A DNA stretch of 64,000 bases from Candidatus Phycocordibacter aenigmaticus (GCA_045401115.1 CP174359.1:652667-716666), one strand, 5' to 3'; shown: positions 23,329 through 61,353, counted from the stretch's first letter. Notes: generated by a model not told the origin, from the sequence alone. Numbers and translations are program-made.

Positions 23329-26300
23329 TTAGGAAACTCTGACGTCGAATGCTTGTGCGAGCGCAATCTTGAGGTTAGTGAATTGTGAGGTGTAACTGGT
23401 ATCAAGTGCGTGAGCAAATACCTCAACCAGTTCTGAAAGCGCCGCATCAGAAACCGTTGCTGCCTTTTCTTTAATATCCAAGTCATTAAACTCAGTGCCT
23501 GTTTTGCGCGATCGGCAGAGACGGTCAAGTGTGGTGGCAATTGCTGTTGCGAACCGTGTTGCTGATACTCCTTCAGACTCTATCTTTGCAAGCAATGTAA
23601 ACGCCTCGTCACGATTACCTGAGAGTAATGCGGCAACAAATCGATTCACTGCTTCACCTTCAAGTGCTGGAGCTTTTGCATCTGACTGCGCATGAGATGT
23701 GTGTGCCGGCGCTTCAGGTGACTCTTCTACCACTGACTCCTCCTGTGGAGTGTTTGTTGACTCGGTCGCGCGGATTAACTCACGAACACGAGTGCCTGAG
23801 AGATGGATCCATCCGTCTTCACGTGGAATAGTGCGTACGGCCTCATTCAGTACGTCACCAAACGCTTTAAGTGTTTCGGCACGTTCGGTACGTAAATGAG
23901 TCGCAACCATCACAGCTTCTGGTGAGAGGAGGATGCCTGCAGCGTGTGCACGTGACTCAATAACATCACTTAACTCAGGCAACGCACCTGCGGCATTTGG
24001 TGTGTATACTACCGACGGACGTGATGCCGGTGCAGCGTGTCTTTGAGGTGCCGGCGCTACTGATGGCGCCATAGTTGCAGCAGCAACTGGTTCTACATCA
24101 CGCTCAAACTCATCCGCTTCATTAAACTGCGGTGCTGCTGTTGTATTGTCATATGATGGCGGTTCATAGTCGTGGTAATCACGAGCATTAGATGTTTGCG
24201 GCACTATGCCAATACGCTCTGCAAAGAACCGTAGACTACCGCGCCCAATAAGGACATAGGTAATGCCGAGACTCCATAGCGCGACTGCCAACCAGAAGAG
24301 CATAGTCAGGAATGGACCTGCCTCAAAACCAGTATATGGAACCTGTGCCAGTGATACGAATGATGCGCCGAGCACCTCACCTCCTGGAGCACTCGCCAAA
24401 GAGACGTTTGGCTGATTTAAACCACCACCACAATTAGTACAACCGGTATTAACACGAACTTCCGCAGAACAAGTGACATCACCATGGGGACCTGAGAAAG
24501 TTGCAGTGTAATTAGTATCAGTTGATGGGAACAATGTATTAGTTGTGCCGCCTCCAACCGGAGATATTGAACCAACATTATTATCAATGCTGCCGCTCGT
24601 TACGTTCGCTGAGGTCCAAGTCAGTGTAATTGAGTCACCAGTATCAATCTGTGAATCAGATGCGGTAAGTGTACACGCAGGTACTGGATCTGGTGGTTGA
24701 TTCACGGTTACTGTAGTGCTACAGCTTGTTGTGTCGCCTGCACTGTTTTTTGCAACACCAGTAAATGTTCTCGTGCTTGTCAGCGGAACAGTATCTTTTG
24801 AACCACTACCAATACTTACTGAACCGATACCTTGATTAATTTCAAAAGAAACGGCATTTTGTGTACTCCACTGGAGTGTTGAAGTTGCATTGAGGTCAAC
24901 CACACTTGGGTTTGAGGTGAGTGTACACACTGGAGCATTAGGTGTAGGAGGTGGATCAATAGTAATAGAACACGTACGCTCTGCGCCAGCACTGTTTCTC
25001 ACTTTAAGGTTGTAGGTACCTGCGCCCACGGTCTTTGAACCATCTTGTGGTGTGATGCCAGCACCGTTAAGGAATGCGGCAGCAGCATTGCTAATAGTCC
25101 AACTCAATTCTGTAGTAGTTTCACCCATAGCAATTGCTGGTGCATCAATAGTACACACTGGAGGGTTAGTCACCACCTGTTTGTTTTTAAAGACGACTGC
25201 GGCACATGAAGACCCACTTGGTACATTCACTACACCGCCTGATGGGGTCACTGAAATCAAATCCCATGAACTACCCGCGTCCACTTCAGTCACTGTATGT
25301 AGTCCAGGAGTGACGTTATCAAAACGTGCGTGTCCATTAGCGTCTGAGGTAACAGTTCGACTACCTAGTTTAAAGGTGAACTGCGCAACCGGTGTGAGCG
25401 GTGCTCCGGTAGTATCAAACGTTTCTTTCAGAATACGGATACATCCAGGGGCTGGAGGTATTGGCGGCGGATCAATAGTAATAGAACATGTACGTTCAGC
25501 ACCGGCGCTATTTCTCACTTTGAGGTTGTAGGTACCTGCGCCCACGGTCTTTGAACCATCTTGTGGTGTGATGCCAGCACCGTTAAGGAATGCGGCAGCA
25601 GCATTGCTAATAGTCCAACTCAATTCTGTAGTAGTTTCACCCATAGCAATTGCTGGTGCATCAATAGTACACACTGGAGGGTTAGTCACCACCTGTTTGT
25701 TTTTAAAGACGACTGCGGCACATGAAGACCCACTTGGTACATTCACTACACCGCCTGATGGGGTCACTGAAATCAAATCCCATGAACTACCCGCGTCCAC
25801 TTCAGTCACTGTATGTAGTCCAGGAGTGACGTTATCAAAACGTGCGTGTCCATTAGCGTCTGAGGTAACAGTTCGACTACCTAGTTTAAAGGTGAACTGC
25901 GCAACCGGTGTGAGCGGTGCTCCGGTAGTATCAAACGTTTCTTTCAGAATACGGATACATCCAGGGGCTGGAGGAGGAGTTTCAACAGTAATTGCTGCCG
26001 TACAGGTGGCAGTATCTCCGGCACTGTTTTGAACAGTACCAGTATATACGAACGTACCTGCACTTCCTGGTGTTATAGATTTTGTCCCATTTGCAATTGG
26101 ACTCGTCCAAAGAGAGAGCGCTCCCACTCCACGATTAATAGAAAAACTTGTTGCGTTGCGTGTTTCCCACGTAATATCAGCATCTTCGCCGAGTTCAATA
26201 GTACTTGGTGCGATGGACATTGTACATACAGGTGGCTGGATTTGCGGAGCAACAGTGACCGTATCAGAACACGTAGCGGTGCGACCAGTAGCACTCGTTA

Positions 26301-26742
26301 CCGTCATAGTGTATGTGGTACTTCCGACCGGAGGAGTAACTGAACGGGTACCGTTTGAGATATTTACCGCCCCAATATTTTGATTAATAGTTGCAGTACT
26401 TGCACGCGTGGTCGTCCAAGACAGGTTGGTGCTGTCACCAAAAGACAGAGAAGATGGGTTCGCGGTAAGTGTACATACTGGAGTAATGTGACCGCCACCG
26501 CCGCCACCGCCATCACCGCCACCGCCGCCGATAGTGCCACCGCCGCCGCCCCAACCGCCGCCACCACCACCGCCGCCGTCGTGCTTAATACAAGTATGAC
26601 AACTAATAATCGCGTTGGCAGTATTGATACCTCGATCCACAACACTTTCTGAAAGGTCCACTGTAAACCATGCCCCGGCAAAAAGCAGGATAAATATAAA
26701 AAATGAACGAGCAATGGTGTTATATACGTTGTTATTTATCAT
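23329..26742 (-). CDS. Giant cell-surface protein with N-terminal signal/anchor, poly-Gly tract, about 7 Cys-bracketed Ig-like repeats, a TM helix and a ~350-aa cytoplasmic tail
   Basis: 1137-aa ORF with N-terminal hydrophobic FFIFILLFAGAWF. A Gly tract (GGGGGGGGWGGGGGTIGGGGGDGGGGGGG) is encoded by the GCC/ACC-repeat DNA at about 26490..26580. Repeated ~85-aa modules follow the pattern PVCT...LxW...TCxxTITV, alternating with prealbumin/Cna-B-like modules. The motif VPYTG is followed by a TM helix and basic residues (RGSLRFF). The start overlaps the upstream sortase stop (ATGA). Confidence 0.75.
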   Translation of the reverse strand: MINNNVYNTIARSFFIFILLFAGAWFTVDLSESVVDRGINTANAIISCHTCIKHDGGGGGGGGWGGGGGTIGGGGGDGGGGGGGHITPVCTLTANPSSLSFGDSTNLSWTTTRASTATINQNIGAVNISNGTRSVTPPVGSTTYTMTVTSATGRTATCSDTVTVAPQIQPPVCTMSIAPSTIELGEDADITWETRNATSFSINRGVGALSLWTSPIANGTKSITPGSAGTFVYTGTVQNSAGDTATCTAAITVETPPPAPGCIRILKETFDTTGAPLTPVAQFTFKLGSRTVTSDANGHARFDNVTPGLHTVTEVDAGSSWDLISVTPSGGVVNVPSGSSCAAVVFKNKQVVTNPPVCTIDAPAIAMGETTTELSWTISNAAAAFLNGAGITPQDGSKTVGAGTYNLKVRNSAGAERTCSITIDPPPIPPAPGCIRILKETFDTTGAPLTPVAQFTFKLGSRTVTSDANGHARFDNVTPGLHTVTEVDAGSSWDLISVTPSGGVVNVPSGSSCAAVVFKNKQVVTNPPVCTIDAPAIAMGETTTELSWTISNAAAAFLNGAGITPQDGSKTVGAGTYNLKVRNSAGAERTCSITIDPPPTPNAPVCTLTSNPSVVDLNATSTLQWSTQNAVSFEINQGIGSVSIGSGSKDTVPLTSTRTFTGVAKNSAGDTTSCSTTVTVNQPPDPVPACTLTASDSQIDTGDSITLTWTSANVTSGSIDNNVGSISPVGGGTTNTLFPSTDTNYTATFSGPHGDVTCSAEVRVNTGCTNCGGGLNQPNVSLASAPGGEVLGASFVSLAQVPYTGFEAGPFLTMLFWLAVALWSLGITYVLIGRGSLRFFAERIGIVPQTSNARDYHDYEPPSYDNTTAAPQFNEADEFERDVEPVAAATMAPSVAPAPQRHAAPASRPSVVYTPNAAGALPELSDVIESRAHAAGILLSPEAVMVATHLRTERAETLKAFGDVLNEAVRTIPREDGWIHLSGTRVRELIRATESTNTPQEESVVEESPEAPAHTSHAQSDAKAPALEGEAVNRFVAALLSGNRDEAFTLLAKIESEGVSATRFATAIATTLDRLCRSRKTGTEFNDLDIKEKAATVSDAALSELVEVFAHALDTSYTSQFTNLKIALAQAFDVRVS
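24962..25993 (-). repeat. Exact in-frame tandem duplication (2 x 516 bp) inside the surface-protein gene
   Basis: About 470 bp are identical at period 516, for example the 25001.. and 25517.. copies of ctttRaggttgtaggtacctgcgcccacggtctttgaacc... This yields two identical 172-aa protein units and the identical plus-strand shadow ORFs 25052..25531 and 25568..26032. Confidence 0.85.
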
Positions 26743-40522: not shown

Positions 40523-42181
40523 CTATTTAAAATCAAGATGAGCAAAGGGTTCATAATCACCCCGAATGACCTTCTTGCCGGGATTAAAAATGTCCTGTGG
40601 GTCAAAAGTTTCCTCGACACGGTTAAAAAGTTCCGTCATGCGTGGACCAAACATACGCTCAACATACGGGGTACGCACGAATCCATCGTTATGTTCACCG
40701 GAAATCGAACCTTTATAAGACAACACCAGTTCATATACTCGGTCAGACAGTTCCGTAATAAGTTTTTTTGCATCAGGTCGATTTGGATCAAGCAGTGGGA
40801 TGATATGAAAATTACCGTCTCCTACGTGTCCAGCAATAGTATAGATAAGATCATATTCTTTCAGAATGGCATTAAGTTTTGGTAAAAATTCAGGTAATGA
40901 TTGCGGTGGCACCACGAAATCATCAATAAACGGTGCAGTGCGTTTATTGCGCACCTTACTACGCAGCAGGTTAAAGCTCTCGCGGCGCACCGTCCAATAT
41001 TTACGCGCCTCTTTTTCATTCTTTGCAAGGAACGTGTCGACAGCGTCCCCATGTTCCATTTTTACTTCAGCAATAAGTGCTTCAGCTTGTTTTAGTGCTT
41101 CAGCTTGCTCTTGTGCACGAAATTCAACAAGCAGCACCAGCTTAGGAACTCCCCCGGTAAGGAGACGCCATATTTCAGGCAAAAACGATATTCCAAGTTG
41201 AAAAATATTTGATTTCATACTCAACGCAAATTCCGGAAAATACCGTACTGCTAGAGAGAATGTGTTATCGTCATACGATTCAAAACTATTCGGCTTATGC
41301 GCAAGCACGGTGGGAACCAGTGTGCCGAGATCATCAATAGAATCCACAAATAGCACCGCCATAGCTGCGTATGGTTTTGGCTCTACCAAACGAAACTTTA
41401 TTTTAGTGATAATACCCATAGTGCCTTGTGAGCCCACCATTAAACGCGCCAAATTTAAACTCGTGATTCCGTCGCCAATATCCCACAATGCATACCCAGA
41501 TGAGTTTTTCTCAACATGTGGTTTTTTCTCTTTTATAATGTCACTGTTTTCTTTTACTAATGAACCGATCCTGCGATACATTTCTCCTTCGAATGAATCT
41601 TCAGACATTTTTTTCATCAGTGCCTCGCCTGAGAGCGCTTTGAGCGTATACACGTTGCCGTCAGCAAGTACCATCTCAAGTTCTTCTACATAGCGCGCAG
41701 TTTTTCCGTATTTTAAATTACGTTCTCCACCAGAGTCGTTCGCTGCCATACCACCGACAGTACACAACTCCCGGGAAGCGGTATAGCTCGGCAAAATAAA
41801 ACCTTTTTCGCGCGTCCGCACATCAAAATCACGATAAAACACCCCTGGTTCAACTACTGCATACCCGCCGTCAGCGTCTTCCCCCACCTCACACACAGTG
41901 TTGAAATGCGGAAGCATGTCAATCACAATTGAGTCACTCAGTGGCCCACCACTCATATCAGTACCGGCAGACCGCGCGGTAATACTTATCTCTTCGCCTG
42001 CGTCTCGTTTAGTATTTACAAAATCCACCAGCGCCTGTACGTCAGCGGTATCTCGCGGTGCCACCACTACCGTCGGTTTGAGTACAAATAGACTTGCGTC
42101 TCGACTAAACTTCTCTCGTGTTTCTGAGGAATCATCAACATCTCCACGAACAACGGTACGTAATTCATCAGCTAAACTCAT
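40523..42181 (-). CDS. FAD-linked oxidase (GlcD/D-lactate dehydrogenase-like, FAD-binding PCMH-type)
   Basis: 552 aa. N-terminal FAD-binding domain (VVVAPRDTADVQALVDF...ARSAGTDMSGGPL) plus an FAD-oxidase C-terminal domain. Confidence 0.7.
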   Translation of the reverse strand: MSLADELRTVVRGDVDDSSETREKFSRDASLFVLKPTVVVAPRDTADVQALVDFVNTKRDAGEEISITARSAGTDMSGGPLSDSIVIDMLPHFNTVCEVGEDADGGYAVVEPGVFYRDFDVRTREKGFILPSYTASRELCTVGGMAANDSGGERNLKYGKTARYVEELEMVLADGNVYTLKALSGEALMKKMSEDSFEGEMYRRIGSLVKENSDIIKEKKPHVEKNSSGYALWDIGDGITSLNLARLMVGSQGTMGIITKIKFRLVEPKPYAAMAVLFVDSIDDLGTLVPTVLAHKPNSFESYDDNTFSLAVRYFPEFALSMKSNIFQLGISFLPEIWRLLTGGVPKLVLLVEFRAQEQAEALKQAEALIAEVKMEHGDAVDTFLAKNEKEARKYWTVRRESFNLLRSKVRNKRTAPFIDDFVVPPQSLPEFLPKLNAILKEYDLIYTIAGHVGDGNFHIIPLLDPNRPDAKKLITELSDRVYELVLSYKGSISGEHNDGFVRTPYVERMFGPRMTELFNRVEETFDPQDIFNPGKKVIRGDYEPFAHLDFK

Positions 42182-42274
42182 GCTTATTATTATAACTCAC
42201 GTGAAATATTTAATAGTTTCTGTACCCCACTACTTGATACAGGATGTCTAAAACCCAGTGGTATACTACACACC

Positions 42275-43000
42275 ATGGCTTTTGTGCACGCAGGAGAAGA
42301 GCACCGTAAACACGAAGATCTCGTAGAAGCTCTCAATGACCCTGAAACATTCAAAAAATACAAAGAATCCTGTGATAATCAGCCGGTTTCTTTTCTCCCT
42401 CATATACTCGGACACTTTCTTATTGCCGCCGGCAACACGCTCTACGGGAAAAAGCCGTCATATCTTAAATTTCGCGCCGTAGAAGTTATTGCGCGCGTAC
42501 CCTACCATTCATGGGTTGCAGTTAGTCACACGTTACTTACTCGATTCTATAAAGATGAGAAACGCGCGTTGGTACTCTGTGCCGATGGAGAATTTGCGCG
42601 CCTCTCCCAAGAGAACGAGACAATGCATGTGGTGGTTATTTCAACACTTACTGAAAATGAAGAGCGTGGCAACGTTATTACTCATACCATTATCCCACTG
42701 ATGTTTGCGCTCTTTTATTACTGGGTCAGTTACCTTATTTATCTCTTTAAACCACGATGGTCACTTGAGTTGAACTACCTTTTTGAGAATCATGCTCTTG
42801 AACAGTATGATGAATTTCTCAAACAAAACGAAGAATCACTCAAGAGTAAACCTATTGAGAGCGAGTTTCTCTCATGGTATGGCCGTGAATTTAGGACGCA
42901 GTACGATTTTTTCCAATCAGTACGTAATGATGAACTCATCCACAGGAACCGTTCAATCCACACCACTTCGTGGCGAGAAAAAACTACATCTCCCCAATAA
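42275..43000 (+). CDS. Alternative oxidase / plastoquinol terminal oxidase (AOX/PTOX)-like di-iron carboxylate protein
   Basis: All four AOX iron-ligand motifs occur in order: AVEVIARVP (LET-like), ENETMH (NERMH), YLFENHALEQYDEFLK (LEEEA..H.Y.EFL) and VRNDELIHRN (RADEAHHR). Size is 241 aa. Confidence 0.72.
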   Translation: MAFVHAGEEHRKHEDLVEALNDPETFKKYKESCDNQPVSFLPHILGHFLIAAGNTLYGKKPSYLKFRAVEVIARVPYHSWVAVSHTLLTRFYKDEKRALVLCADGEFARLSQENETMHVVVISTLTENEERGNVITHTIIPLMFALFYYWVSYLIYLFKPRWSLELNYLFENHALEQYDEFLKQNEESLKSKPIESEFLSWYGREFRTQYDFFQSVRNDELIHRNRSIHTTSWREKTTSPQ

Positions 43001-43041
43001 TTACATTGCCTCTTTTGAACGGTGGTACACTAAAACAACAT

Positions 43042-44007
43042 ATGAACAATATAGATTTTTTAGCTATTGGCGACACTGTTACTGACGCATTTATTACCTT
43101 AGAAGATATTCGCATTGATACCGATCCTGACCCTGAGGATCAAGGGCAAGATGAAATTTGTTTCCGTTTTGGCGACAAACTACCGTATGAAGAACTGACC
43201 ATCACCCCAGGTGTGGGTAATGCTGCAAACGCGGCAGTCTCTGCCCATAGACTTGGACTCAACACCGCTCTGGTAACCGATATTGGTGGTGATACGTTTG
43301 GTAAGGAAATTCTTGAATACTTTGCTGGAGAAGGGCTCAACACTGAGTATGTACGGGTCCATGACAATATTCCTACGAATTATCATTTTGTGCTGTCACA
43401 CAATGCAGAACGTACTATTCTCATTAAACATCAAGCCTACCCATACGCACTTTCTCATATTGAACCACCCAAAACACTGTATTTCTCTTCTATCGGAGAA
43501 GGCACTGAGGAATATCATGACGCTATTGCGGATTATGTTGAAGCGCACCCCGATATACTTTTTGCATTCCAACCTGGCACCTTCCAAATGAAACTTGGCA
43601 AAGAGCGCCTCAAGCGTATCTACGCTCGCGCGAACATGGTGTTTGCAAACAAAGAAGAATACCAACGCATTCTTGAATCGAAGAGTGATGATGTTGAAGC
43701 GCTTCTACAAGAAATGAAAGAACTCGGTCCTGATACTCCTATTCTTACCGACGGACGAAACGGCGCCTATGCGCTGACTGAAGAAGGAATTGAACACGTA
43801 TCAATGTTCCCCGACCCAGCGCCTCCGAAAGAGCGCACCGGTGCTGGTGATGCGTTCTCGTCAACCACCGCAGCGTTAGTAACAGAAGGTTTCTCTCTTA
43901 AAGATGCGATGAAACGTGGCACTATCAATAGTGCATATGTCGTACAAAAAACCGGCGCACAGGAAGGACTACTCACTCGTGAAGCAATCGAAGAAAAACT
44001 CAAATAA
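43042..44007 (+). CDS. PfkB/ribokinase-family carbohydrate kinase
   Basis: Start at ATG 43042 (MNNIDFLAIGDTVTDAF..., N-terminal Gly-rich substrate motif). The C-terminal TGAGDAF anion-hole motif is present. Confidence 0.75.
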   Translation: MNNIDFLAIGDTVTDAFITLEDIRIDTDPDPEDQGQDEICFRFGDKLPYEELTITPGVGNAANAAVSAHRLGLNTALVTDIGGDTFGKEILEYFAGEGLNTEYVRVHDNIPTNYHFVLSHNAERTILIKHQAYPYALSHIEPPKTLYFSSIGEGTEEYHDAIADYVEAHPDILFAFQPGTFQMKLGKERLKRIYARANMVFANKEEYQRILESKSDDVEALLQEMKELGPDTPILTDGRNGAYALTEEGIEHVSMFPDPAPPKERTGAGDAFSSTTAALVTEGFSLKDAMKRGTINSAYVVQKTGAQEGLLTREAIEEKLK

Positions 44008-44025
44008 GAAGCATAGAAAAAACAA

Positions 44026-44096
44026 AAAATAAACGGCTCAATGACTGAGCCGTTTATTTTTTACCGCATTTTTGGTCAACACCCGGGTGTTGACCA
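44026..44096. repeat. Composite palindromic element: hairpin H (ATAAACGGCTCA-atga-CTGAGCCGTTTAT, with A/T runs) plus 24-nt perfect palindrome P1 (TGGTCAACACCCGGGTGTTGACCA)
   Basis: H is at 44026..44062 and P1 at 44073..44096, between the convergent kinase and ABC permease genes. The same H+P1 pair recurs in inverted order at 49825..49908, and H alone at 23162..23203. Confidence 0.75.
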
Positions 44097-49931: not shown

Positions 49932-50453
49932 TTAAGATCGCCTTCCGTAGACCAGCGATGTCACGACGAACCCAATAACAAGCCCGACAGCAATACCAAT
50001 AAGGTTTGAAGAGCTGAAGAAACCACCGCCACTGTTCGTATTTGCAACTGCACCACCAACGACAGTGAGTGTGAATTCAGTACTTGCTATTGCTTCATCT
50101 TCATTTTGATAACGGGCACTCACTGTGTATTCTCCAGCATACGGAAACACATAACTCAAACGTGACCCACCGAATTCGGCGTTATGCACACCAGTTGCTA
50201 ATGTCGTGCCGCGTTCTCCTTCAATACGCACCCACACATCGGAAAAATCATGAAAACGTTCTTGATTACGTAAAATCTCAAAATCAAAGATAACTGCTTC
50301 ACCGACCTCCGGTGCCGGAGAACTGTATCCAATATCAAGCGCATATCCATTCACCTCATCTTCGTGGGATGTCCCCCATGAATGAGCACCTACCACACCA
50401 GGAGCGAGTAAAAATAGAAACGTGACGAGGAAAGTAGCTACAAATTTCATCAT
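49932..50453 (-). CDS. Secreted protein with N-terminal His after the predicted signal cleavage site and a C-terminal TM anchor (YcnI/CopC-like architecture; putative metal-binding)
   Basis: Signal peptide MMKFVATFLVTFLFLLAPGVVGA, then mature HSWGTSHEDEV..., a beta-rich middle and a C-terminal TM helix IGIAVGLVIGFVVTSLVY plus RRS. Confidence 0.4.
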   Translation of the reverse strand: MMKFVATFLVTFLFLLAPGVVGAHSWGTSHEDEVNGYALDIGYSSPAPEVGEAVIFDFEILRNQERFHDFSDVWVRIEGERGTTLATGVHNAEFGGSRLSYVFPYAGEYTVSARYQNEDEAIASTEFTLTVVGGAVANTNSGGGFFSSSNLIGIAVGLVIGFVVTSLVYGRRS

Positions 50454-50854
50454 TTAACTATGATAACACCAGTGAAGTATGGCGCAAGGTGATCGTGGAA
50501 ATCCCACTCTCCTGTTTGACCGAATGTGAATTCCCACGTTTCTTCCGCCGATACTGGTCGTTTTGGATCAAACTCAGGATAGTCACGATGTGATGGATGA
50601 AGGTTAGATGCCGGCCAATGTGGTTTTTTAAGTTCCGTATTAAACACCACAGTATCCCCTTCCTCTATCTCGAGTTCTTCTGGGACATATCCGGTTTCAG
50701 TAAGTGTGATGGTGTGAATAACACCAGTGGCGTTAGTAATTGGTTGATTATTTACTTCCTCTTTTGATGAGTTGTTTTGGGAAAAGAAAAACACCGCCCC
50801 TGCAAGTACAGCTAGGAGCACTATAACAACACCGAGTACACGTTTATCACCCAT
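50450..50854 (-). CDS. Membrane-anchored stand-alone cupredoxin-like domain protein (Cys ligand replaced by HDH)
   Basis: 134 aa. N-terminal TM, then ITLTETGYVPEELEIEEGDTVVFNTELKKPHWPASNLHPSH...ETWEFTFGQTGEWDFHDHLAPYFTGVIIVK. This matches the cupredoxin_1-like strand pattern (GDTVxFxN...H...TFxxxGxYxYxCxxHPxMxGxIxV) with C-x-x-H-P-x-M replaced by H-D-H-L-x-P. Confidence 0.6.
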   Translation of the reverse strand: MGDKRVLGVVIVLLAVLAGAVFFFSQNNSSKEEVNNQPITNATGVIHTITLTETGYVPEELEIEEGDTVVFNTELKKPHWPASNLHPSHRDYPEFDPKRPVSAEETWEFTFGQTGEWDFHDHLAPYFTGVIIVK

Positions 50855-50866
50855 AGAATAAAAAAA

Positions 50867-52309
50867 TTATATCACGTCTTGCGGACAGTATGCAGCCAGC
50901 TCAGGAGTAAGCGTGTTGCAGATACGTCTTGTTTTCTCCACGCTATACCATCCATCTAAATCACCAAGAACTTCTGTATAGCAAGCATCCTTATGGGTCA
51001 CTGAAAGGGTCGCATCTGCACAAAAATCAAGCGCGGCTTCATATTCTTTTTCTGGAATTCCATGTTCAAGGAGACCGTGAGCAAAACCAGCGATACACCG
51101 GTTTTGGTGTGTACCAAGTCGACGACATACATCAACAACCTCAGCACTATTGAAAGACGGCAATTCATTGTACGCATACAAACCTGCAAGATATTCAAGG
51201 GCCACATTCAAATGCGGTTCTTTTGTGCCTGAAAGCACTGCTTGAGCTGCAGGGAGGAATTGATTATCGGCCATCCAGAAAATAACCGAGTTCATGTTAC
51301 CGTAGCATGATTCAGCATACTGTCCTTCTTGTGCAGCGCACAGAGTAACCGGGTTTTCTTTTGACACATCCAATCCATACTCATTATTAATATATAAATT
51401 TGCAATGCCGTTAAATAAACCTGACGCACAACGGAATCGTTCTTCCTCCCCCTCTGACGCAACTTCACATTGCGCAAGTGCCGCATCTATTACTGCCGAT
51501 ACGCTGCCAAATTCTCCTGTATTCGCAATAAAAGTTTCCATCACCCCATGGCCAATGCCGTGATAACACTGCAAACGTGCATCGGGCGCATCCCGCCCCA
51601 CTGCTTCGCCAATCGCTTCACACACACCGCCGGCACTCGCAATATCATCGGTGGCACCAAGATATGCTTCCATAAAACCATGATGGAAGCCTGAAGCACA
51701 TGCTGACGCTTTTGGTGTCATGATTGAATTTGAGTCTTTACGATAAAATCCATAACTTGCCAAGCCAATATTATGCGCAATGTAGTGACAAGACTGCGCA
51801 AACTCAGGTTCGCTTTCATAGAGTTCAGCCACTTTGTCATACGCTGCGCCAAGCCCATCTTCAGCAAGTGCAAGAAAAATATCGTCCTGCCAGCACGCAA
51901 GATTACCTCCCCGAGAAATACAACTATCTGTTAATTCACCATCTACACCAGTGACGCGTACGATACCAAAATAAAATGGTGCGAGATGGTCATGATATTT
52001 AAAAAGACCTGATTCCGTGAAGGTAAACTCCCACGTGGCTCCTGGCGGCAGTGCTTGTTGCGTATCAAACTCGGGATATGCTTCGTGTGTTGGATGAAAA
52101 TCAGAAGCCGGCCAAAAATATTTGTTACTTCTATTAACAAATGTCACTGTCTCCCCCACAGCAACCGTAATCTCAGTTGGTGAAAAACCATTTTCAGTGA
52201 GCAGCACAGTACGCGGCGGTGTTACTATCAGATTGATAAGTAACACCAAGCCCGTTATCATTATAACGCTCCCAACTCCAACCAATACTCCTTTTTTATT
52301 TTTATTCAT
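50867..52309 (-). CDS. Paralog family member A1: TM anchor + cupredoxin-like domain + Cys/His-rich helical repeats
   Basis: The cupredoxin-like block (GETVTFVNRSNKYFWPASDFHPTHEAYPEFD...TWEFTFTESGLFKYHDHLAP) is followed by repeats such as SCHYIAHNIGLASYGFY, CASGFHHGFMEAYL and CYHGIGHGVMETF. Start trimmed to Met15. Confidence 0.65.
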   Translation of the reverse strand: MNKNKKGVLVGVGSVIMITGLVLLINLIVTPPRTVLLTENGFSPTEITVAVGETVTFVNRSNKYFWPASDFHPTHEAYPEFDTQQALPPGATWEFTFTESGLFKYHDHLAPFYFGIVRVTGVDGELTDSCISRGGNLACWQDDIFLALAEDGLGAAYDKVAELYESEPEFAQSCHYIAHNIGLASYGFYRKDSNSIMTPKASACASGFHHGFMEAYLGATDDIASAGGVCEAIGEAVGRDAPDARLQCYHGIGHGVMETFIANTGEFGSVSAVIDAALAQCEVASEGEEERFRCASGLFNGIANLYINNEYGLDVSKENPVTLCAAQEGQYAESCYGNMNSVIFWMADNQFLPAAQAVLSGTKEPHLNVALEYLAGLYAYNELPSFNSAEVVDVCRRLGTHQNRCIAGFAHGLLEHGIPEKEYEAALDFCADATLSVTHKDACYTEVLGDLDGWYSVEKTRRICNTLTPELAAYCPQDVI

Positions 52310-53780
52310 AAACAAAATCGTATGAGCAATATTTCTGATACGGTTCCTCAATAGTATTACATATATCCGCTACCTTCTCTTTTGTATAAATCCCCTTAAA
52401 GGTGCGAGTAATATTCCAGTAGCATACGTCCCGTTCATGAGCAGTGAGTATGTCGGTACGACAAAAATCCAAAGCTTTTTCATATTCACGATTTGGCTCG
52501 CCAAAGGCTGCAAATGCACCCGTTAATCCTTTCATACAATCTGTTTGTAAAAACTGCGGTAAGCGCCGGCAGTCATATACTAAATCGGAAAAATCATCTT
52601 CAAGAATACGTGCGCCAAGTGCACCAGCAGCAAATGAATTAATAATCGTACCGGCAATCAAATCGTCAGGAATAGTGGAGATGTGTTTCTCATATATCAT
52701 TCCCATATCAATATTTACCTCAGTATTGAGTTTCATTGCGACTTCGTAGTAGCACGCACGTGCAATTTCATCACTTTCAAATGAAGCGCATAATATAAAC
52801 GGTTTATCATCAGAATAATGTAATCCAAATTGATTGTTCCACATCCAGTCAGCGATGACATTAAAGGCGCCTTGGAGGCATTGTTCACGCAGCGGAGTCT
52901 CTTTAAGTCGATCACACGCGGTGAGGGCGGGAGCAACTAACTTTTCTGTATTTCCCCAATCTTCAATATTAAGGGGTTCAGGGACAAAGCCGTGCCCAAT
53001 GGCGTGATAGCAGTTTAATTGTATCCATGGCAATTCATCTTCACGTCCGGTAAGGTTCTCACAAATTTCAAGTGCGAGATCGTAGTCCGGTTCATCGCGC
53101 AGGAAATGCTCAAGGAATCCATGGTAGTAACCGTAGCCACAGTACGAAGTTTCCGGCGGGAACTCCAATTTACTCATGTCTTTGTGACCAAGATACAAAC
53201 CATACTCAACTTCACCGAGTTTGTGTGCCATCCAGTGACATCCGATAGAACTAAATTCGGGTTCGTTTTCATACAGCTCTTCGAAGAGTGCGAACGACTC
53301 TTTTACTCCCTCAGTTTCTAACGTATTGGCAAGTTCCCGTTCCCAACATGCCTGTTTTTCTGACGCGCTTAATTCATCAGAACGTTCAATACAACTCACC
53401 ACTTCAGTGACATCACCTACAAGAATCTGGCCTCGAAAGTAGGGACGGAGATGGTCGTGGTACCACCACACACCATCTTTTTTAAACGTAAACTCCCAAC
53501 GCTCACCCGGTTTTATCGGCCTACCCACATCAAACTCGCTGTATATTTCATGTAGTGGATGGTTGTCGGATGCGACCCACAACGAATGACTACTCTTGTT
53601 TAAAAAAGTAACTGTGTCCCCTGAATCAATCACGAGTTTCTTTGGCGAGAAGCCACTGTCTTTTAGAACGACTGTGTTTGGCGTTAACGGCTGATACTGA
53701 GACAATGCCAATCCTCCCACAAGAAACGTGAGTGCGAGAATGCTAATAATGATGAGAGCGGGTCGTAAAAAAATATTCAT
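52302..53780 (-). CDS. Paralog family member A2 (cupredoxin-like + Cys/His-rich repeats)
   Basis: 492 aa. GCHWMAHKLGEVEY, YCGYGYYHGFLEHFL and NCYHAIGHGFVPEP. Near-identical to A3 over long stretches at the nucleotide level. Confidence 0.65.
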   Translation of the reverse strand: MNIFLRPALIIISILALTFLVGGLALSQYQPLTPNTVVLKDSGFSPKKLVIDSGDTVTFLNKSSHSLWVASDNHPLHEIYSEFDVGRPIKPGERWEFTFKKDGVWWYHDHLRPYFRGQILVGDVTEVVSCIERSDELSASEKQACWERELANTLETEGVKESFALFEELYENEPEFSSIGCHWMAHKLGEVEYGLYLGHKDMSKLEFPPETSYCGYGYYHGFLEHFLRDEPDYDLALEICENLTGREDELPWIQLNCYHAIGHGFVPEPLNIEDWGNTEKLVAPALTACDRLKETPLREQCLQGAFNVIADWMWNNQFGLHYSDDKPFILCASFESDEIARACYYEVAMKLNTEVNIDMGMIYEKHISTIPDDLIAGTIINSFAAGALGARILEDDFSDLVYDCRRLPQFLQTDCMKGLTGAFAAFGEPNREYEKALDFCRTDILTAHERDVCYWNITRTFKGIYTKEKVADICNTIEEPYQKYCSYDFVYE

Positions 53781-53814
53781 AGCGTACTCTTACATGCTCG
53801 ATATATGTACTGCG

Positions 53815-55290
53815 CTATTCATATGAGTATTCATAAGAGCAGTATTCTTTATATGGCTCTGCAATATTGGTACATACCTCTGCCATTTTCTCTTTTGTAT
53901 AAACCCCTTTAAAGGTGCGGGTAATATTCCAGTAACATGTGTCTCTTTCTTTCTCTGTAAGTATATTCATACTGCAAAAATCTATTGCCTTTTCATATTC
54001 ACGATTTGGCTCGCCGTATGCCACAAATGCACCCGTTAATCCTTTCATACAATCTGTTTGTAAAAACTGCGGTAAGCGCCGGCAGTCATATACTAAATCG
54101 GAAAAATCATCTTCAAGAATACGTGCGCCAAGTGTAGTTGCCATAAATGAATTAATGACCATACCTGCGATTCTTTCGTTTGGTATATCAGAAACATATT
54201 TCTCATGCGCCAATATGACATCGTTATCAACCTTTGGATTTAACTTCATTGCCACTTCGTAGTAACACGCTTCTGATGTATACGTATCTTCAAAAAGAGC
54301 ACATATTTCAAGTGGTGTGTCGTCTGGGAAATACAAACCAAATTGGTTATTCCACATCCAGTCAGCGATGACATTGAAGGCACCTTGGAGACATTCAACA
54401 CGAAGTGCCTGCTCGTCAAGCCGATTACACGCATTCAGTGCAGGTGCTACCAGCTCTTTTGGCTTCCCCCACTCTTCAATATCGAGTGGTTCGGGAACAA
54501 AGCCGTGTCCTATGGCGTGGTAGCAATTCAACCGTATGCGTGGCAATTCATCTTCACGGCCGGTAAGATTCTCACAAATTTCAAGTGCGAGATCGTAGTC
54601 CGGTTCATCGCGCAGGAAATGCTCAAGGAATCCATGGTAGTAGCCGTAACCACAGTACGAAGTTTCCGGCGGGAACTCCAATTTACTCATGTCTTTGTGG
54701 CCAAGGTAAACGCCATACTCAACTTCACCGAGTTTGTGTGCCATCCAGTGACATCCAATTTGACTAAACTCAGGCTCACTCTCGTATAATTTTTTAAAGA
54801 GTACAAATGATTCCTTCACCCCTTCAATTTCCAGGGTATTGGCAAGTTCCCGCTCCCAACATGCTTGCTTCTGTGATGTATTCAACTCGTCGGAGCGTTC
54901 AATACAACTCACCACTTCAGTGACATCACCTACAAGAACCTGGCCGCGAAAGTAGGGACGGAGATGGTCGTGGTACCACCACACACCGTCGTTCTCGAAT
55001 GTGAACTCCCAACTCTCGCCGGGCTGTATGGGCCTGCCTATATCAAATTCAGTATAGATGTCATGTTGTGGATGGTTGTCGGATGCAACCCATAACGAAT
55101 GACTGCTCTTGTTTAAAAAAGTCACTGTACCCCCTGAGTCAACCACGAGTTTCTTTGGTGAAAAACCACCATCTTTCAGTACGACTGTGTTTGGTGCTAA
55201 GGATTCATAATTGGAGACCACGATTCCGGCCGCGAAAAATGCGAAAGCAAGAATACTGATGATAATACTGGGTCGTAAAAAAATATTCAT
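53815..55290 (-). CDS. Paralog family member A3 (cupredoxin-like + Cys/His-rich repeats)
   Basis: 491 aa. About 85% identical to A2 (same motifs). For example nt 54040..54130 equals 52530..52620. Confidence 0.65.
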   Translation of the reverse strand: MNIFLRPSIIISILAFAFFAAGIVVSNYESLAPNTVVLKDGGFSPKKLVVDSGGTVTFLNKSSHSLWVASDNHPQHDIYTEFDIGRPIQPGESWEFTFENDGVWWYHDHLRPYFRGQVLVGDVTEVVSCIERSDELNTSQKQACWERELANTLEIEGVKESFVLFKKLYESEPEFSQIGCHWMAHKLGEVEYGVYLGHKDMSKLEFPPETSYCGYGYYHGFLEHFLRDEPDYDLALEICENLTGREDELPRIRLNCYHAIGHGFVPEPLDIEEWGKPKELVAPALNACNRLDEQALRVECLQGAFNVIADWMWNNQFGLYFPDDTPLEICALFEDTYTSEACYYEVAMKLNPKVDNDVILAHEKYVSDIPNERIAGMVINSFMATTLGARILEDDFSDLVYDCRRLPQFLQTDCMKGLTGAFVAYGEPNREYEKAIDFCSMNILTEKERDTCYWNITRTFKGVYTKEKMAEVCTNIAEPYKEYCSYEYSYE

Positions 55291-55323
55291 AGTGATGTTA
55301 TTCTCCTCACTGTATATACTGCG

Positions 55324-56796
55324 TTATTCATACGTACAATATTTTTGATACGGTGCCGCAATCAGTGCGCACACTTTTTCCATTTTATCTTTTAGATACA
55401 CTGCTTCAAATGTACGGACAATATTCCAGTAACAAATATCTCTCTCTTCTTCAGATAGTATATCCAAATTACAAAAATCAATTGCTTTTTTGTATTCGTT
55501 CTCTGGTTCACCAGCAGCCATAAATGCTGCAGATAATCCTTTCATGCAGTCTGTCTGTAAGAATTCTGGTATCTGCCTGCACTCATACACAAAACGGGAA
55601 AAGTCGTTGTTGAGAATGTCTTGACCAAGAGCGCTCGCTGCAACAGAACTCAGCACCATACCTGCAATAGCTTCATCGGGTATATGAGATATGTATTTAT
55701 TATATGCACGCACAATATTATTATCAACACTCGGGTTCAGTCGCATTGACACCTCGTAATAACACGCAGACTTCTTTTCATGATCATCAAAAGATGCGCA
55801 GAGAGCAAGAGGTTTATCTTCTGGGTAGTACAAACCAAATTGGTTATTCCACATCCAATCACCAATTACATTAAACGTCCCTTGATAACATTCGTGACGC
55901 TCGTCGTCACGGCTCATTCTCTCACATGCGTCTAACGCCGGAGCAACCATTTTCCGTGGGTCTCCCCACACTTCAACATCATCCGGCTCAGGAACAAATC
56001 CGTGACCGACCGCATGATAGCAGTTCAAGCGAATTCGTGGGATTCTATCTTCAAGTCTGGTAATGAGTGTTTGACAGAACTGGTTGGCGGCATCGTAATC
56101 AGGGTCGTCACGTAGGTAATGCTCCAGAAATCCATGATAGTAGCCGTATCCACAATACGATGTCTCCGGAGGAAATTCTAAACGAGAAAGATCTTTATGG
56201 GTTAGGAATTCGCTATACTCAACCTCACCAATTTTATGCGCCATCCAGTGACATCCAATAGTAGTAAAATCTTTATCTGTATTATACAGTTCAGTAAATA
56301 ATTCGAACGAAGCTGTGGTTCCATGTTCCTTAAGTTCGTTTGCAAGCTCTCGCTCCCAGCACGACTGTTTATCCTCAATTGACGCTCCTTCGAGTTCATC
56401 GAGACAACTCTTTGATTCGTCGGCATTACCCACCACCACTTTTCCGTTGTAGTAAGGGCGCAGATGGTCGTGATACCACCAGACTCCCTCTTTTTCAAAA
56501 GTAAACGTCCACGATTCATTTTTCTCAAGTGGATGTCCTGCATCAAACTCCGTATATAAAGTATGCTGAGGATGATTATCAGAAGCAGGCCAAAATGAAA
56601 ATGAGCCTTTATTTATAAATGTTACCGTCTCCCCCACTTGAATTGCTATTCGCGAGGGATGAAAACCACCATCTTTAAAAACAACTGTGTTTGGTCCCAC
56701 AGGTGTATAGTTAGACACCACGATTCCGCCTACGAGAAACGCGAGTGCGAGAATGCTAATGATAATAAAAGCGGAAAGAGGTGCTGAAATTTTCAT
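55324..56796 (-). CDS. Paralog family member A4 (cupredoxin-like + Cys/His-rich repeats)
   Basis: 490 aa. GETVTFINKGSFSFWPASDNHPQH...WWYHDHLRPYY, GCHWMAHKIGEVEY and NCYHAVGHGFVPEP. Confidence 0.65.
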   Translation of the reverse strand: MKISAPLSAFIIISILALAFLVGGIVVSNYTPVGPNTVVFKDGGFHPSRIAIQVGETVTFINKGSFSFWPASDNHPQHTLYTEFDAGHPLEKNESWTFTFEKEGVWWYHDHLRPYYNGKVVVGNADESKSCLDELEGASIEDKQSCWERELANELKEHGTTASFELFTELYNTDKDFTTIGCHWMAHKIGEVEYSEFLTHKDLSRLEFPPETSYCGYGYYHGFLEHYLRDDPDYDAANQFCQTLITRLEDRIPRIRLNCYHAVGHGFVPEPDDVEVWGDPRKMVAPALDACERMSRDDERHECYQGTFNVIGDWMWNNQFGLYYPEDKPLALCASFDDHEKKSACYYEVSMRLNPSVDNNIVRAYNKYISHIPDEAIAGMVLSSVAASALGQDILNNDFSRFVYECRQIPEFLQTDCMKGLSAAFMAAGEPENEYKKAIDFCNLDILSEEERDICYWNIVRTFEAVYLKDKMEKVCALIAAPYQKYCTYE

Positions 56797-56805
56797 GGAG
56801 TCTTT

Positions 56806-58050
56806 TTATTGTATATCATTAGCGTTTGGTTGAATATTATATCCTTCTTTGTTTAAACACTGCGTACTCCATGGTTCAGGTAGTGTTCGGCAAAACGTTT
56901 TAAATGGCTCTGAATCCGGTATAAAGTTAAACGTTGAATAGAATAACAGTTCATCGTAGCACCGCTGACCAACACCATGCTCTTCAGCTATTTCACACAA
57001 ATCAACCGCGCGCGAGGCAAGGCGATAATCGGTTTCAATAAACCGCGATGCTGAATTTGCAAAACACTGCCCTTGTCGCTCTTGCGGCAATCCTTCACAA
57101 ATCGGAACAATCCGGCTCGCATCAAAATTAAATTGAGCTGTTAACACATAGAACATCGCATTGTAACAACGATGCATTGACTGCCCATCAGGTACAAGAT
57201 TACAAAATCGCTGGAGTAAGTTCGGGTCACTAAGCTCCTCGCGATAGAGCGGCCAACTTTCTCGATGACATGCCGCACGACGCTCGCCAGAAAATGTTCT
57301 GCAAAACGCTTCGGCTTCTGCTTGGGTTTCCGGCTCTATATCCTCAACGAGGGCGAAATCCTCAGGCTCAAGCGGTTGAAAAATCTGCATGTAGGCGCCC
57401 TCATAACATGTTTGTGTATAATCGCGCTCGCCTTTTTTTGCCACTTGATCACATACTCCGGTTGCCTCACTGATATGAGCATCAGTAATATACATAGAAA
57501 GATGTCCTAGAGCGTGGTAACAACTTGCCTGTTCAAGACCAGTAAACGTTTTTGCTTCACTATTTTCACAGATAGTATCAAGTTGAGGAATGAGTTCTTG
57601 AAGTTCTTCACCTACAAAAACCTTATCGCGGAAACGCTCTTGAAATGCACCGTGAATAGCACCGTTTGAACAAACACCGGTCGGTGCACGCGCAATAACT
57701 TCAGTCCATTTAGAAAGGTCCTTAGCTGCTTCTTTAGCAGATAAGTTATGACCAAGTACATGGCAATAAAAATAACTAGGGTCACGTTCCTGTACTTTAA
57801 CTGTTACTTGAAACGCTTCCTCCATAGTAAGTCCTTTATCCATAAGACGCGGTATCTCGGTATCGTAACAATGAGGCGCATTATTTTCTTCCGCACACGC
57901 TTCCATCACCTCGTCAGCGAGCTCTGCAAAGGTTTTACCAGACGTACCGACAGTATCTACAAACAAGCCCTGCAGCTGCCCTGCAGCTGCATAGCCTATA
58001 ACAATAAGAACTAAAATACTGATTATAAAAATATTTTTCTTTTTTTGCAT
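56806..58050 (-). CDS. Paralog family member B1 (signal anchor + Cys/His-rich repeats, no cupredoxin domain)
   Basis: 414 aa. YCHVLGHNLSAKEAAKDL, CSNGAIHGAFQERF and CYHALGHLSMYI. Paralogous to 61354..62610. Confidence 0.6.
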   Translation of the reverse strand: MQKKKNIFIISILVLIVIGYAAAGQLQGLFVDTVGTSGKTFAELADEVMEACAEENNAPHCYDTEIPRLMDKGLTMEEAFQVTVKVQERDPSYFYCHVLGHNLSAKEAAKDLSKWTEVIARAPTGVCSNGAIHGAFQERFRDKVFVGEELQELIPQLDTICENSEAKTFTGLEQASCYHALGHLSMYITDAHISEATGVCDQVAKKGERDYTQTCYEGAYMQIFQPLEPEDFALVEDIEPETQAEAEAFCRTFSGERRAACHRESWPLYREELSDPNLLQRFCNLVPDGQSMHRCYNAMFYVLTAQFNFDASRIVPICEGLPQERQGQCFANSASRFIETDYRLASRAVDLCEIAEEHGVGQRCYDELLFYSTFNFIPDSEPFKTFCRTLPEPWSTQCLNKEGYNIQPNANDIQ

Positions 58051-58055
58051 ACAAT

Positions 58056-59057
58056 TTATGGACGATCTTCAATGCCTTCGGTTAAATCAGCTAATCTCAG
58101 ACATCGATCTCTCTCCTGTGGAGATACTAACACGCAAAATTGTTCTGGTTCATCGCGAAGCTCATCTAAAGCATAGAAACTCCATGACGCTCCCGCTAGA
58201 CACGCCACCTCCCCAAGGGAACCAAACGCAGCGCAATGTTCACGTACACGCGGCGCGTTGTATTCAGTACTCGGTGCTAAATTAGATCCAATACCCATAA
58301 AACATCGCTCACGATAGATAGACGACGCAATATCACCACATACAGCTTTTTGTTGCTGAATGTTGTTATTCAACATCCGCAAAAACCACTGACCAAGTTC
58401 AAAATAGCAAGACTCTCGAAAAACCTCATCGACTTCAGTGCAGGGAGTATATGGGTCATTTTTATTAAACTCCCGGGGTTTCGGTATTTCTCCATCAGGA
58501 CCAACAACAAGTGGAGTGTTGTACTCCATAAACACTCCTGAAGTACAGCCTAAAAGTTGGGTGACTTGAGTAGTTTTTGCACATAACTCAAGTGCTTTAG
58601 AGACACTCTCATATCCGACATATTCCATAATACCGTGACCGATACCATGTTGGCACCCGGTACCTAAGACTGAGTACGCATTAACACATTGTGTATCAAG
58701 CTCACTGATTACAGAAACACCTTCTTCACTAATTGCTCGCCCAAAAAACCCATGGAAACAACCGAAACTAAAACTTGCATCACAGTAACGGATACCCGCA
58801 ACACCTTCATGTTCATAAAAAAGCTCTCCGATAATATGTGTTGAAAGATGTCGCCTCTCAAAGGGTGCGACTTGATTCTTCTTTTTAAATTCAGAAAATG
58901 CATCCTGCGCACCTACTTTATTAATGCGTGTATCCCAATACGCACGATTATAGGACTCACTCTCTATTGAATAGATTGGATGTGAGTCAGCGGTTAAAAA
59001 TGTGCCGATAAACATACCGACAATGATAAGTACTCCAAATATTGCAAAACGTCTCAT
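58056..59057 (-). CDS. Paralog family member C1 (signal anchor + Cys/His-rich repeats)
   Basis: 333 aa. FSFGCFHGFF, CQHGIGHGIMEY and GCTSGVFMEYNTPL. Paralogous to 59060..60091. Confidence 0.6.
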   Translation of the reverse strand: MRRFAIFGVLIIVGMFIGTFLTADSHPIYSIESESYNRAYWDTRINKVGAQDAFSEFKKKNQVAPFERRHLSTHIIGELFYEHEGVAGIRYCDASFSFGCFHGFFGRAISEEGVSVISELDTQCVNAYSVLGTGCQHGIGHGIMEYVGYESVSKALELCAKTTQVTQLLGCTSGVFMEYNTPLVVGPDGEIPKPREFNKNDPYTPCTEVDEVFRESCYFELGQWFLRMLNNNIQQQKAVCGDIASSIYRERCFMGIGSNLAPSTEYNAPRVREHCAAFGSLGEVACLAGASWSFYALDELRDEPEQFCVLVSPQERDRCLRLADLTEGIEDRP

Positions 59058-59059
59058 AG

Positions 59060-60091: not shown

Positions 60092-60095
60092 ACCT

Positions 60096-61313: not shown

Positions 61314-61353
61314 AAAACGTACTTAGTATATCAGAATCCTCACCAATACATTC

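Follow-up and report, generated by a model that had tools for sequence, protein, structure and literature searches.

The 64,000-nt stretch of the Candidatus Phycocordibacter aenigmaticus genome analyzed here (CP174359.1, positions 652667 to 716666; called the window below) encodes a protein of 241 amino acids (aa) that is, judged from its sequence, a bona fide member of the alternative oxidase/plastid terminal oxidase (AOX/PTOX) family of di-iron proteins with every iron ligand intact. Taking into consideration its sequence and its modeled structure, it is reasonably probable that this protein is a functional single-subunit di-iron quinol:O2 oxidase, which would pump no protons and would act as an oxygen and redox sink on acquired quinone. 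Enzymes of this kind are well known, and the gene has already been named in NCBI, where an identical protein, encoded on a contig of 721 kb, is deposited as 'MAG: alternative oxidase [Patescibacteria group bacterium UBA2163]' and its neighbor, from the same organism, as "FAD-binding oxidoreductase". What is new is that the protein belongs to a distinct compact clade, related to PTOX, which is native to and widespread in Paceibacteria and is not mentioned in the searchable papers on Candidate Phyla Radiation (CPR) bacteria. The initial annotation of the window had described an AOX-like di-iron protein encoded in a reduced genome and divergently paired, across 93 bp, with an oxidase linked to flavin adenine dinucleotide (FAD); the coordinates of the two open reading frames (ORFs) and of the gap between them agree exactly with this description (Table 1), and the host genome is a reduced Patescibacteria genome.

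The AOX-like identity proposed for the protein was borne out by a search with the hidden Markov model (HMM) PF01786 (AOX), which matched residues 64-227 over HMM positions 54-211 with E=4e-11 and a score of 43.4 bits, as compared with a gathering score of 22.7. As PF01786 was the sole family found at E<=0.1 in the Pfam scan of the protein, assignment to another di-iron family (Coq7, rubrerythrin, ferritin-like) was rejected. The four iron-ligand motifs that had been recognized in the initial annotation are all present and in order, namely AVE70VIARVPY, N114-E115-T-M-H118, F-E171-N-H173-A-L-E-Q-Y178-D-E-F-L and N-D219-E220-L-I-H223-R. They supply the iron ligands E70, E115, H118, E171, E220 and H223, the catalytic Tyr (Y178) and the second-sphere residues N114 and D219, with roles, including those of the catalytic Tyr and of the Asn and Asp ahead of the ExxH glutamates, that follow the structural literature on the trypanosome alternative oxidase (TAO). 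Alignment of the protein to TAO and PTOX showed that all six Glu and His ligands are retained.

Among solved structures, TAO was missed both by a search with the single sequence and by a profile built from Paceibacteria only, and it was reached (9m2a, 9kun and 3vv9, E about 1e-5) with a profile broadened by Acidimicrobiales-type and PTOX-type sequences. In the resulting alignment, NETMH falls on NERMH and DELIH on DEAEH, while E171 falls on the first Glu of LEEEA and Y178 on the Tyr seven residues further ('LEEEAVITY'); the TAO counterparts of E171 and Y178 are taken by us to be E213 and Y220. For motif 1, comparison of profile with profile gives an alignment to "ALETIARVPY" of PTOX. Two positions near the third motif differ, as TAO T219 is replaced by Gln177 and TAO E215 by His173 in the window protein, and K65, five positions ahead of the first Glu, provides a basic residue where PTOX has Arg. 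Across 23 Paceibacteria homologues, which are 55-69% identical to the window protein, E70, N114, E115, H118, E171, H173, A174, Y178, D219, E220 and H223 are invariant, and the same residues are invariant in an alignment of 18 sequences to which six sequences of the Acidimicrobiales type and four of the eukaryotic PTOX type had been added. The mean column identity of 66% among these diverse Paceibacteria indicates that the oxidase is under strong constraint, i.e., purifying conservation.

An AlphaFold2 model built from the alignment (pLDDT 88, pTM 0.87) predicts a four-helix-bundle di-iron fold like that of TAO, which was the sole significant match among solved structures; when the PDB was searched with Foldseek, ranks 1-13 were all TAO (probability 1.00, TM-score 0.54-0.58) and were followed by noise or bacterioferritin. 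A helix at residues 134-158 (VITHTIIPLMFALFYYWVSYLIYLF) has a mean hydropathy of 1.62 and reaches 1.77 in its most hydrophobic 19-residue stretch, residues 139-157, and the helix at residues 40-57 has a hydropathy of 1.06. No signal peptide was found in the 241-aa protein. These hydropathy values are consistent with monotopic membrane association, and the oxidase may therefore be located at the membrane.

The position of the protein within its family was examined by an exhaustive profile search over 1.84 billion representative sequences, which yielded 500 matches at E<=1e-3. A Paceibacteria clade of about a dozen representatives scored above 190 bits. Clearly below these came a bacterial clade at about 90-126 bits, and then PTOX-like eukaryotic sequences at about 60-80 bits. 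The intermediate clade consists of proteins of Acidimicrobiales/Ilumatobacteraceae annotated "alternative oxidase" (4682 proteins), and the nearest named distant match was found in a cluster that includes 'immutans protein [Nannochloropsis oceanica]'. In the best 150 representatives that contain motif 1, this motif was always of the PTOX type, "ARVPY", and in none of them was it of the mitochondrial/proteobacterial AOX form. An hhalign comparison of the Paceibacteria alignment with 18 PTOX-like sequences produced a match of 162 columns, with a probability of 99.7% and E=1e-25. The window protein does not carry the mitochondrial AOX signatures, having VEVIARVPY, NETMH, FENHA and RNDELIHR in their place, and the PTOX insertion of about 20-26 residues just before motif 4 is missing in both the Paceibacteria and the Acidimicrobiales clades. 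By its motifs, the oxidase is thus placed on the PTOX side of PF01786, but neither in PTOX proper nor in AOX proper.

Relatives of the oxidase were found in more than 1055 clusters at 90% identity (E<=1e-3), the homologous clusters all carrying PF01786, and in at least 215 GTDB species, a count that is a lower bound since the scan of one genome per species used two exact peptide patterns. The best 80 matches were essentially all from Patescibacteria (Paceibacterota and Minisyncoccia, with Kaiser-, Adler-, Yonath- and Nomurabacteria labels). An AOX-family oxidase had been called rare in bacteria and unexpected in a reduced genome; this surprise is fair in view of textbook descriptions of the CPR, but the gene is common in Paceibacteria. 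Paceibacteria-type oxidases were also observed in bins labeled Bacillota, Gammaproteobacteria or Saccharibacteria (L021, L055 and L084, together with many 'uncultured Candidatus Saccharibacteria' loci), and these odd taxonomic labels are probably mislabels of the source records. In close relatives, the identity to the oxidase (64-70%) follows the values for the proteins encoded on either side, the FAD oxidase (66-71%) and the PfkB kinase (61-68%). The G+C content of the gene (0.428; 0.413 at third codon positions, GC3) lies within about 1 standard deviation of the values for the genes of the window (0.439±0.019 and 0.356±0.052). As the oxidase diverges in step with its flanking genes and has a native composition, the gene appears to have been inherited vertically.

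In the mechanism proposed here, the oxidase would be bound monotopically to the cytoplasmic face of the membrane through helix 134-158 and the N-terminal helix 40-57, where it would oxidize membrane quinol and reduce O2 to water, pumping no protons and needing neither heme nor copper. In a sugar-fermenting Patescibacteria cell that lacks a respiratory chain, it could remove oxygen and take up surplus reducing equivalents with no conservation of energy. The quinone would probably be acquired with host or environmental lipids and not made by the cell itself, a source already suggested for the bo3 and bd oxidases of other CPR bacteria, and the FAD-linked D-2-hydroxyacid (D-lactate-type) dehydrogenase encoded next to the oxidase would represent one candidate electron feeder, not an obligatory partner. 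Such an enzyme may be well suited to a minimal genome, requiring one small gene and only iron, as compared with the heme and several subunits of bo3 and bd oxidases.

Several observations weigh against a role as quinol oxidase. No men or ubi gene, prenyltransferase gene or NDH-2 gene was recognized among the 55 ORFs of the window, 64 kb of a genome of about 721 kb; these ORFs were read partly through Pfam (some ORFs) and partly by eye from their translations. No operon partner is conserved from which the electron donor could be deduced, the clade is 24-28% identical to its PTOX and Acidimicrobiales relatives, and the TM-score against TAO is moderate (0.57). With TAO T219 replaced by Gln177, the substrate specificity could also be different. 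A lack of quinone biosynthesis, on the other hand, would not be unusual and would not by itself refute a quinol-oxidase function, because bo3 and bd quinol oxidases also occur in CPR bacteria without quinone synthesis. Studies of CPR bacteria from soil and from lakes reported quinol oxidases without quinone synthesis and favored O2 scavenging (PMC8407418, PMC9166423), a role suggested for the terminal oxidases of CPR bacteria (PMC9166423). The 2015 genome paper on Parcubacteria bacterium C7867-001 by Nelson and Stegen described a bd quinol oxidase and no quinone biosynthesis genes, and proposed that quinones are host-derived (PMC4508563). The genome of C7867-001 also carries an AOX/PTOX-like oxidase gene (LFCK01000004.1; locus L074, 6001-6648), which is not mentioned in that paper. 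All three of these papers on CPR oxygen metabolism (PMC4508563, PMC8407418, PMC9166423) treat bo3 and bd oxidases only. The literature search found no study of the clade and no paper joining "alternative oxidase" with Parcubacteria; one CPR match was found in a paper on the AOX of Naegleria.

A special case of the proposed quinol oxidation, and one put forward in the initial annotation, is a dedicated two-enzyme chain in which electrons would pass from D-lactate or another D-2-hydroxyacid through the FAD dehydrogenase and quinone to the oxidase and O2. This chain is conceivable, with a documented precedent in trypanosomes and microsporidia (PMC2820529), but on balance it seems rather doubtful. 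When 83 other AOX loci were fetched and their neighbors clustered, the FAD oxidase was found as the immediate neighbor in 6 of them, in three orientations and with otherwise different flanking genes. Three loci (L002, L003 and L006) show the divergent, window-type synteny (L25 and FAD oxidase on one side, AOX, PfkB and ABC transporter on the other), two (L078 and L079) have the FAD gene followed, after 23-72 bp, by the AOX gene on the same strand, and one (L075) has the AOX gene followed by the FAD gene on the same strand. When metagenomes were scanned with the L079 oxidase as the query, 31 contigs were recovered, 12 of which keep the FAD gene upstream on the same strand, down to an AOX identity of 62%. 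The FAD oxidase is moreover the sole redox enzyme that recurs beside the AOX gene, and both genes are widespread in Paceibacteria. The pairing carries some weight in that adjacency has been kept in at least two distant lineages and in different orientations.

These points are set against the fact that no FAD oxidase was found within 6 kb of the AOX gene in 77 of the 83 other loci, and that none of four further FAD-oxidase loci (L086, L087, L088 and L089) has an AOX gene nearby. Among the latter, L087 (4005-7370) has the synteny of the window (RpiB, Rpe, transketolase and PfkB, then FAD oxidase, L25 and SLT) with no oxidase and with a gap of 33 bp between the PfkB and FAD genes; here the block is fixed except for the loss or gain of the AOX gene. 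A purN-like gene intervenes between the FAD and AOX genes in L094, and 420 bp separate them in L097. ABC-transporter and GtrA genes lie near the pair in both arrangements, so that the pairing may well be explained by ancestral synteny that was retained. The commonest neighbor of the AOX gene was a convergent gene of the PduO-type cobalamin adenosyltransferase family (12 loci), followed by housekeeping genes, and co-directional neighbors were almost all singletons; a fixed multi-gene system or universal operon partner was thus rejected, as the neighbors in the 83 loci show none. The linkage of the FAD and AOX genes is therefore suggestive and lineage-specific, and it is clearly non-obligatory.

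The properties of the FAD enzyme also argue against a dedicated chain. Its 552-aa sequence matched FAD_binding_4 and FAD-oxidase_C in Pfam (E=2.3e-28 and 7.9e-52), and the best NCBIfam matches were the N-terminal half of YdiJ, with 271 bits as compared with a cut-off of 1350, and GlcD, with 217 bits as compared with 568; by these scores, the enzyme is an orthologue of neither. The closest solved structures are glycolate oxidase (9qgz), LctD, a subunit of a bifurcating lactate dehydrogenase (7qh2), mouse LDHD (8jdc) and D2HGDH (6lpn); the GHVGDGNFH motif is the same as in mouse LDHD, and 9qgz, 7qh2 and 8jdc all align with the enzyme at GEH. Its designation as GlcD-like or D-lactate dehydrogenase-like thus held for the type, by Pfam and motifs, but not at the level of the GlcD equivalog. 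Neither a Fe-S/CCG domain, a membrane-binding domain nor a GlcE/GlcF partner was found, the neighbors being L25 and the oxidase, and no signal peptide or transmembrane segment was seen on reading the 552-aa sequence. It is accordingly predicted to be a cytoplasmic flavoprotein of the GlcD/LDHD/D2HGDH/YdiJ-N-half type. In characterized relatives, the electron acceptor is electron-transfer flavoprotein (ETF), cytochrome c or a partner subunit, and quinone is not reduced directly. No recognizable quinone-reducing module is present in the sequence, so that the proposal of the enzyme as a quinone reducer found no support, and of the minimal chain of dehydrogenase and AOX there remain the precedent and the recurrent adjacency in two lineages. 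Orthologues with 60-75% identity are widespread in Paceibacteria, so that the FAD enzyme belongs, independently of the oxidase, to the core enzymes of the class. In an Adlerbacteria-type contig (L089, 6685-9402), the orthologue was observed to adjoin NAD_binding_1 (479 aa), ApbE and FMN_bind genes, and this flavin-transfer/reductase-type cluster is perhaps a hint that electrons can leave the dehydrogenase by another route.

A more distant alternative, to which we assign a low probability, is that the di-iron center has been kept for a non-quinol substrate, lipophilic or soluble, or for the reaction of an oxygenase or hydroxylase such as Coq7 or AcsF, in a quinone-free cell. Published Parcubacteria genomes that lack quinone biosynthesis, one of them carrying the oxidase gene, would agree with this (PMC4508563; PMC8407418), as would the distance of the clade from characterized enzymes (24-28% identity) and the changes of TAO T219 to Gln and of TAO E215 to His173. 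A quinol substrate is nevertheless favored by the Pfam result at E<=0.1, with no di-iron family other than PF01786, by the retention of the catalytic Tyr and of basic K65 at the position of the PTOX Arg, and by the presence of bo3 and bd oxidases in quinone-auxotrophic CPR bacteria. It is also favored by the sister clade in Acidimicrobiales, which are aerobic and contain menaquinone. As for the origin of the gene, a recent horizontal acquisition (e.g., from Proteobacteria) or a decaying relic without a role is extremely improbable: although the single CPR match in the Naegleria AOX phylogeny was read as a proteobacterial transfer (PMC9540462), either origin is effectively excluded by the native composition, the co-divergence with flanking genes and the invariance of all catalytic residues, and runs against the PTOX-type ARVPY of the best 150 representatives, none of which is of the proteobacterial/mitochondrial type, and against the presence of the clade in at least 215 GTDB species, almost all labeled Patescibacteria.

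The genomic surroundings of the oxidase gene connect it with sugar metabolism (Table 1). Its stop codon (42998-43000) is followed at a distance of 15-41 bp by the start of a PfkB-family kinase gene, at 43015 (TTG, according to the L001 gene call) or at 43042 (ATG), and the order of the two genes is conserved in L002, L003 and L006. Because the kinase gene is co-directional at close spacing and the sole terminator-like hairpin lies after it, the two genes are probably co-transcribed; this hairpin, between the kinase gene and a convergent gene for an ABC-2 permease, is likely a bidirectional terminator that closes the unit. The AOX-PfkB block adjoins genes for transketolase, ribulose-phosphate epimerase, RpiB and GAPDH. 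In another locus (L066, 2523-6708), genes for phosphoketolase (XFP) and acetate kinase, both confirmed by Pfam, and an AOX-like gene are co-directional with gaps of at most 18 bp, an operon-like layout that links the oxidase to ATP-yielding acetate fermentation. These gene contexts tie the oxidase to sugar fermentation and fit a redox sink that permits more oxidized end products. Single cases of other neighbors were observed in L004 (4882-6738) and L005 (6001-8405), namely a GSDH gene (soluble glucose/sorbosone dehydrogenase-type) located 22 bp upstream of the oxidase gene on the same strand and a gene for a DoxX-domain membrane protein located about 0.9 kb downstream on the same strand, with one gene between.

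Table 1. Features at the oxidase locus, in coordinates of the window
Feature	Position	Strand	Basis
Soluble FAD-linked D-2-hydroxyacid dehydrogenase (predicted), VAO/PCMH superfamily, 552 aa	40523..42181	-	Pfam, NCBIfam, structures
Divergent intergenic region, 93 bp	42182..42274	.	Sequence read directly
AOX/PTOX-family di-iron carboxylate oxidase (predicted), Paceibacteria clade, 241 aa	42275..43000	+	Pfam, ligands, AF2 model, hhalign
PfkB-family sugar kinase	43015..44007	+	PfkB E=6.9e-34; L001 gene call; junction read
Long hairpin, 20-pair stem, T-runs on both sides, between PfkB and convergent ABC-2 permease genes	44021..44065	.	

The gap between the FAD and oxidase genes had been regarded as a shared promoter region. 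The gap itself is present, but it is reduced to 24 bp in a close relative, and a consensus promoter scan found no promoter in the 93 bp, the promoter-like sites of the region numbering 6 as compared with 7.7 expected. TATAAT-like elements lie near both start codons; these -10-like elements were read by eye and do not constitute evidence, and any promoter in the gap is at most putative. A perfect 8-bp palindrome (TCACGTGA) was observed at 42198-42205, just upstream of the TATAAT-like element of the FAD gene, and could be the site of a regulator.

Other features of the window include a run of at least 10 paralogous, apparently secreted, Cys/His-rich proteins on the minus strand (50450-64000). 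Among these are four paralogues of about 490 aa (50867-56796), which combine an N-terminal cupredoxin-like domain (weak Pfam match to Cupredoxin_1) with a Cys-rich domain that has no Pfam match, a stand-alone cupredoxin-like protein of 134 aa (50450-50854) and further Cys-rich paralogues with no Pfam match (56806-62610). A surface-type protein of 1137 aa (23329-26742, minus strand) has a poly-Gly tract near its N-terminus and long near-exact internal repeats, with a segment of about 190 aa containing 'GCIRILKETFDTTGAPLTPVAQFTFKLGSRTV...' present twice. A dehydrogenase of the Glu/Leu/Phe/Val (glutamate-type) family is encoded at 10292-11560 on the minus strand (Pfam E=9.5e-60) and, being NAD(P)-linked, may have a bearing on redox balance.

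CPR/Patescibacteria are usually portrayed as anaerobic fermenters without respiratory chains, and discussion of their relationship to oxygen has centered on bo3 and bd oxidases, which occur sporadically and were acquired horizontally. The AOX/PTOX-like family is far more widespread in Paceibacteria than these, requires neither heme nor copper and is seemingly native. A broader proposal, which can be advanced only tentatively, is that Paceibacteria possess an ancient, vertically inherited, heme-free terminal oxidase encoded by a single gene, which would operate on host quinones, fed in some lineages by the FAD dehydrogenase, or would use a non-quinone donor. Were this true, ultra-small 'obligate fermenters' would have a widespread and so far unrecognized capacity for O2 consumption, their fermentation would be shifted toward acetate and ATP, and the oxidase would represent a molecular marker of dependence on host lipids. 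An active enzyme would explain in a simple way how these bacteria persist in oxic groundwater, soil and lakes, and would sharpen the question of the source of quinone in quinone-auxotrophic epibionts; a protein that is small and easily expressed allows a direct test.

Comparison with known systems places these features in context. The bo3 and bd oxidases of CPR bacteria, including Parcubacteria, are likewise quinol-dependent O2 reductases found without quinone biosynthesis and regarded as O2 scavengers, possibly using host quinones (PMC4508563, PMC8407418, PMC9166423); they differ in being multi-subunit heme (heme-copper) enzymes acquired as operons, whereas the window oxidase is encoded by a single 0.7-kb gene and is predicted to use iron only. 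The chain of glycerol-3-phosphate dehydrogenase (G3PDH), ubiquinone and AOX in bloodstream Trypanosoma brucei and in microsporidia represents a similar situation in that, in a reduced organism dependent on glycolysis, a non-pumping oxidase reoxidizes reducing equivalents (PMC2820529), and in the window, too, the AOX gene lies beside sugar-catabolic genes and a gene for an FAD dehydrogenase. By comparison with this chain, the dehydrogenase of the window is a soluble 2-hydroxyacid dehydrogenase and not of the GlpD type, its link to quinone is putative, no endogenous quinone is known and the pairing is found in some lineages.

Within the Pfam family itself, PTOX/IMMUTANS of plastids, cyanobacteria and algae resembles the window protein in motif 1 (ALETIARVPYF as compared with AVEVIARVPYH), in the ligand pattern E / NExxH / ExHAxxxY / DExxH and in the conserved hydrophobic helix FAFFYYW. 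The identity is 24-27%, however, and proteins of the window type are compact (230-245 aa), with no transit peptide, long N-terminus or PTOX insertion, and the host of the window protein is an ultra-small bacterium that is not photosynthetic and for which no plastoquinone is known. The clade from Acidimicrobiales/Ilumatobacteraceae (Actinomycetota) comprises the nearest non-CPR bacterial relatives by profile score and shares the compact size (about 235-260 aa), the ARVPYQ motif and the absence of the PTOX insertion; its identity to the window protein is about 24-28%, and it has signatures of its own (QQDNEQWHLLIL, FEDHAEHEY and DERxH). The hosts of this clade are presumably free-living aerobic actinobacteria that contain menaquinone and have respiratory chains of their own. 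TAO (PDB 3VV9) and the mitochondrial and proteobacterial AOX differ in sequence, with an identity of about 15-18% and with the motifs LET..VPG, NERMH, LEEEA and RADEAxHR, but they share the predicted fold of the window protein, and motifs 2-4 and the catalytic Tyr align with it residue by residue.

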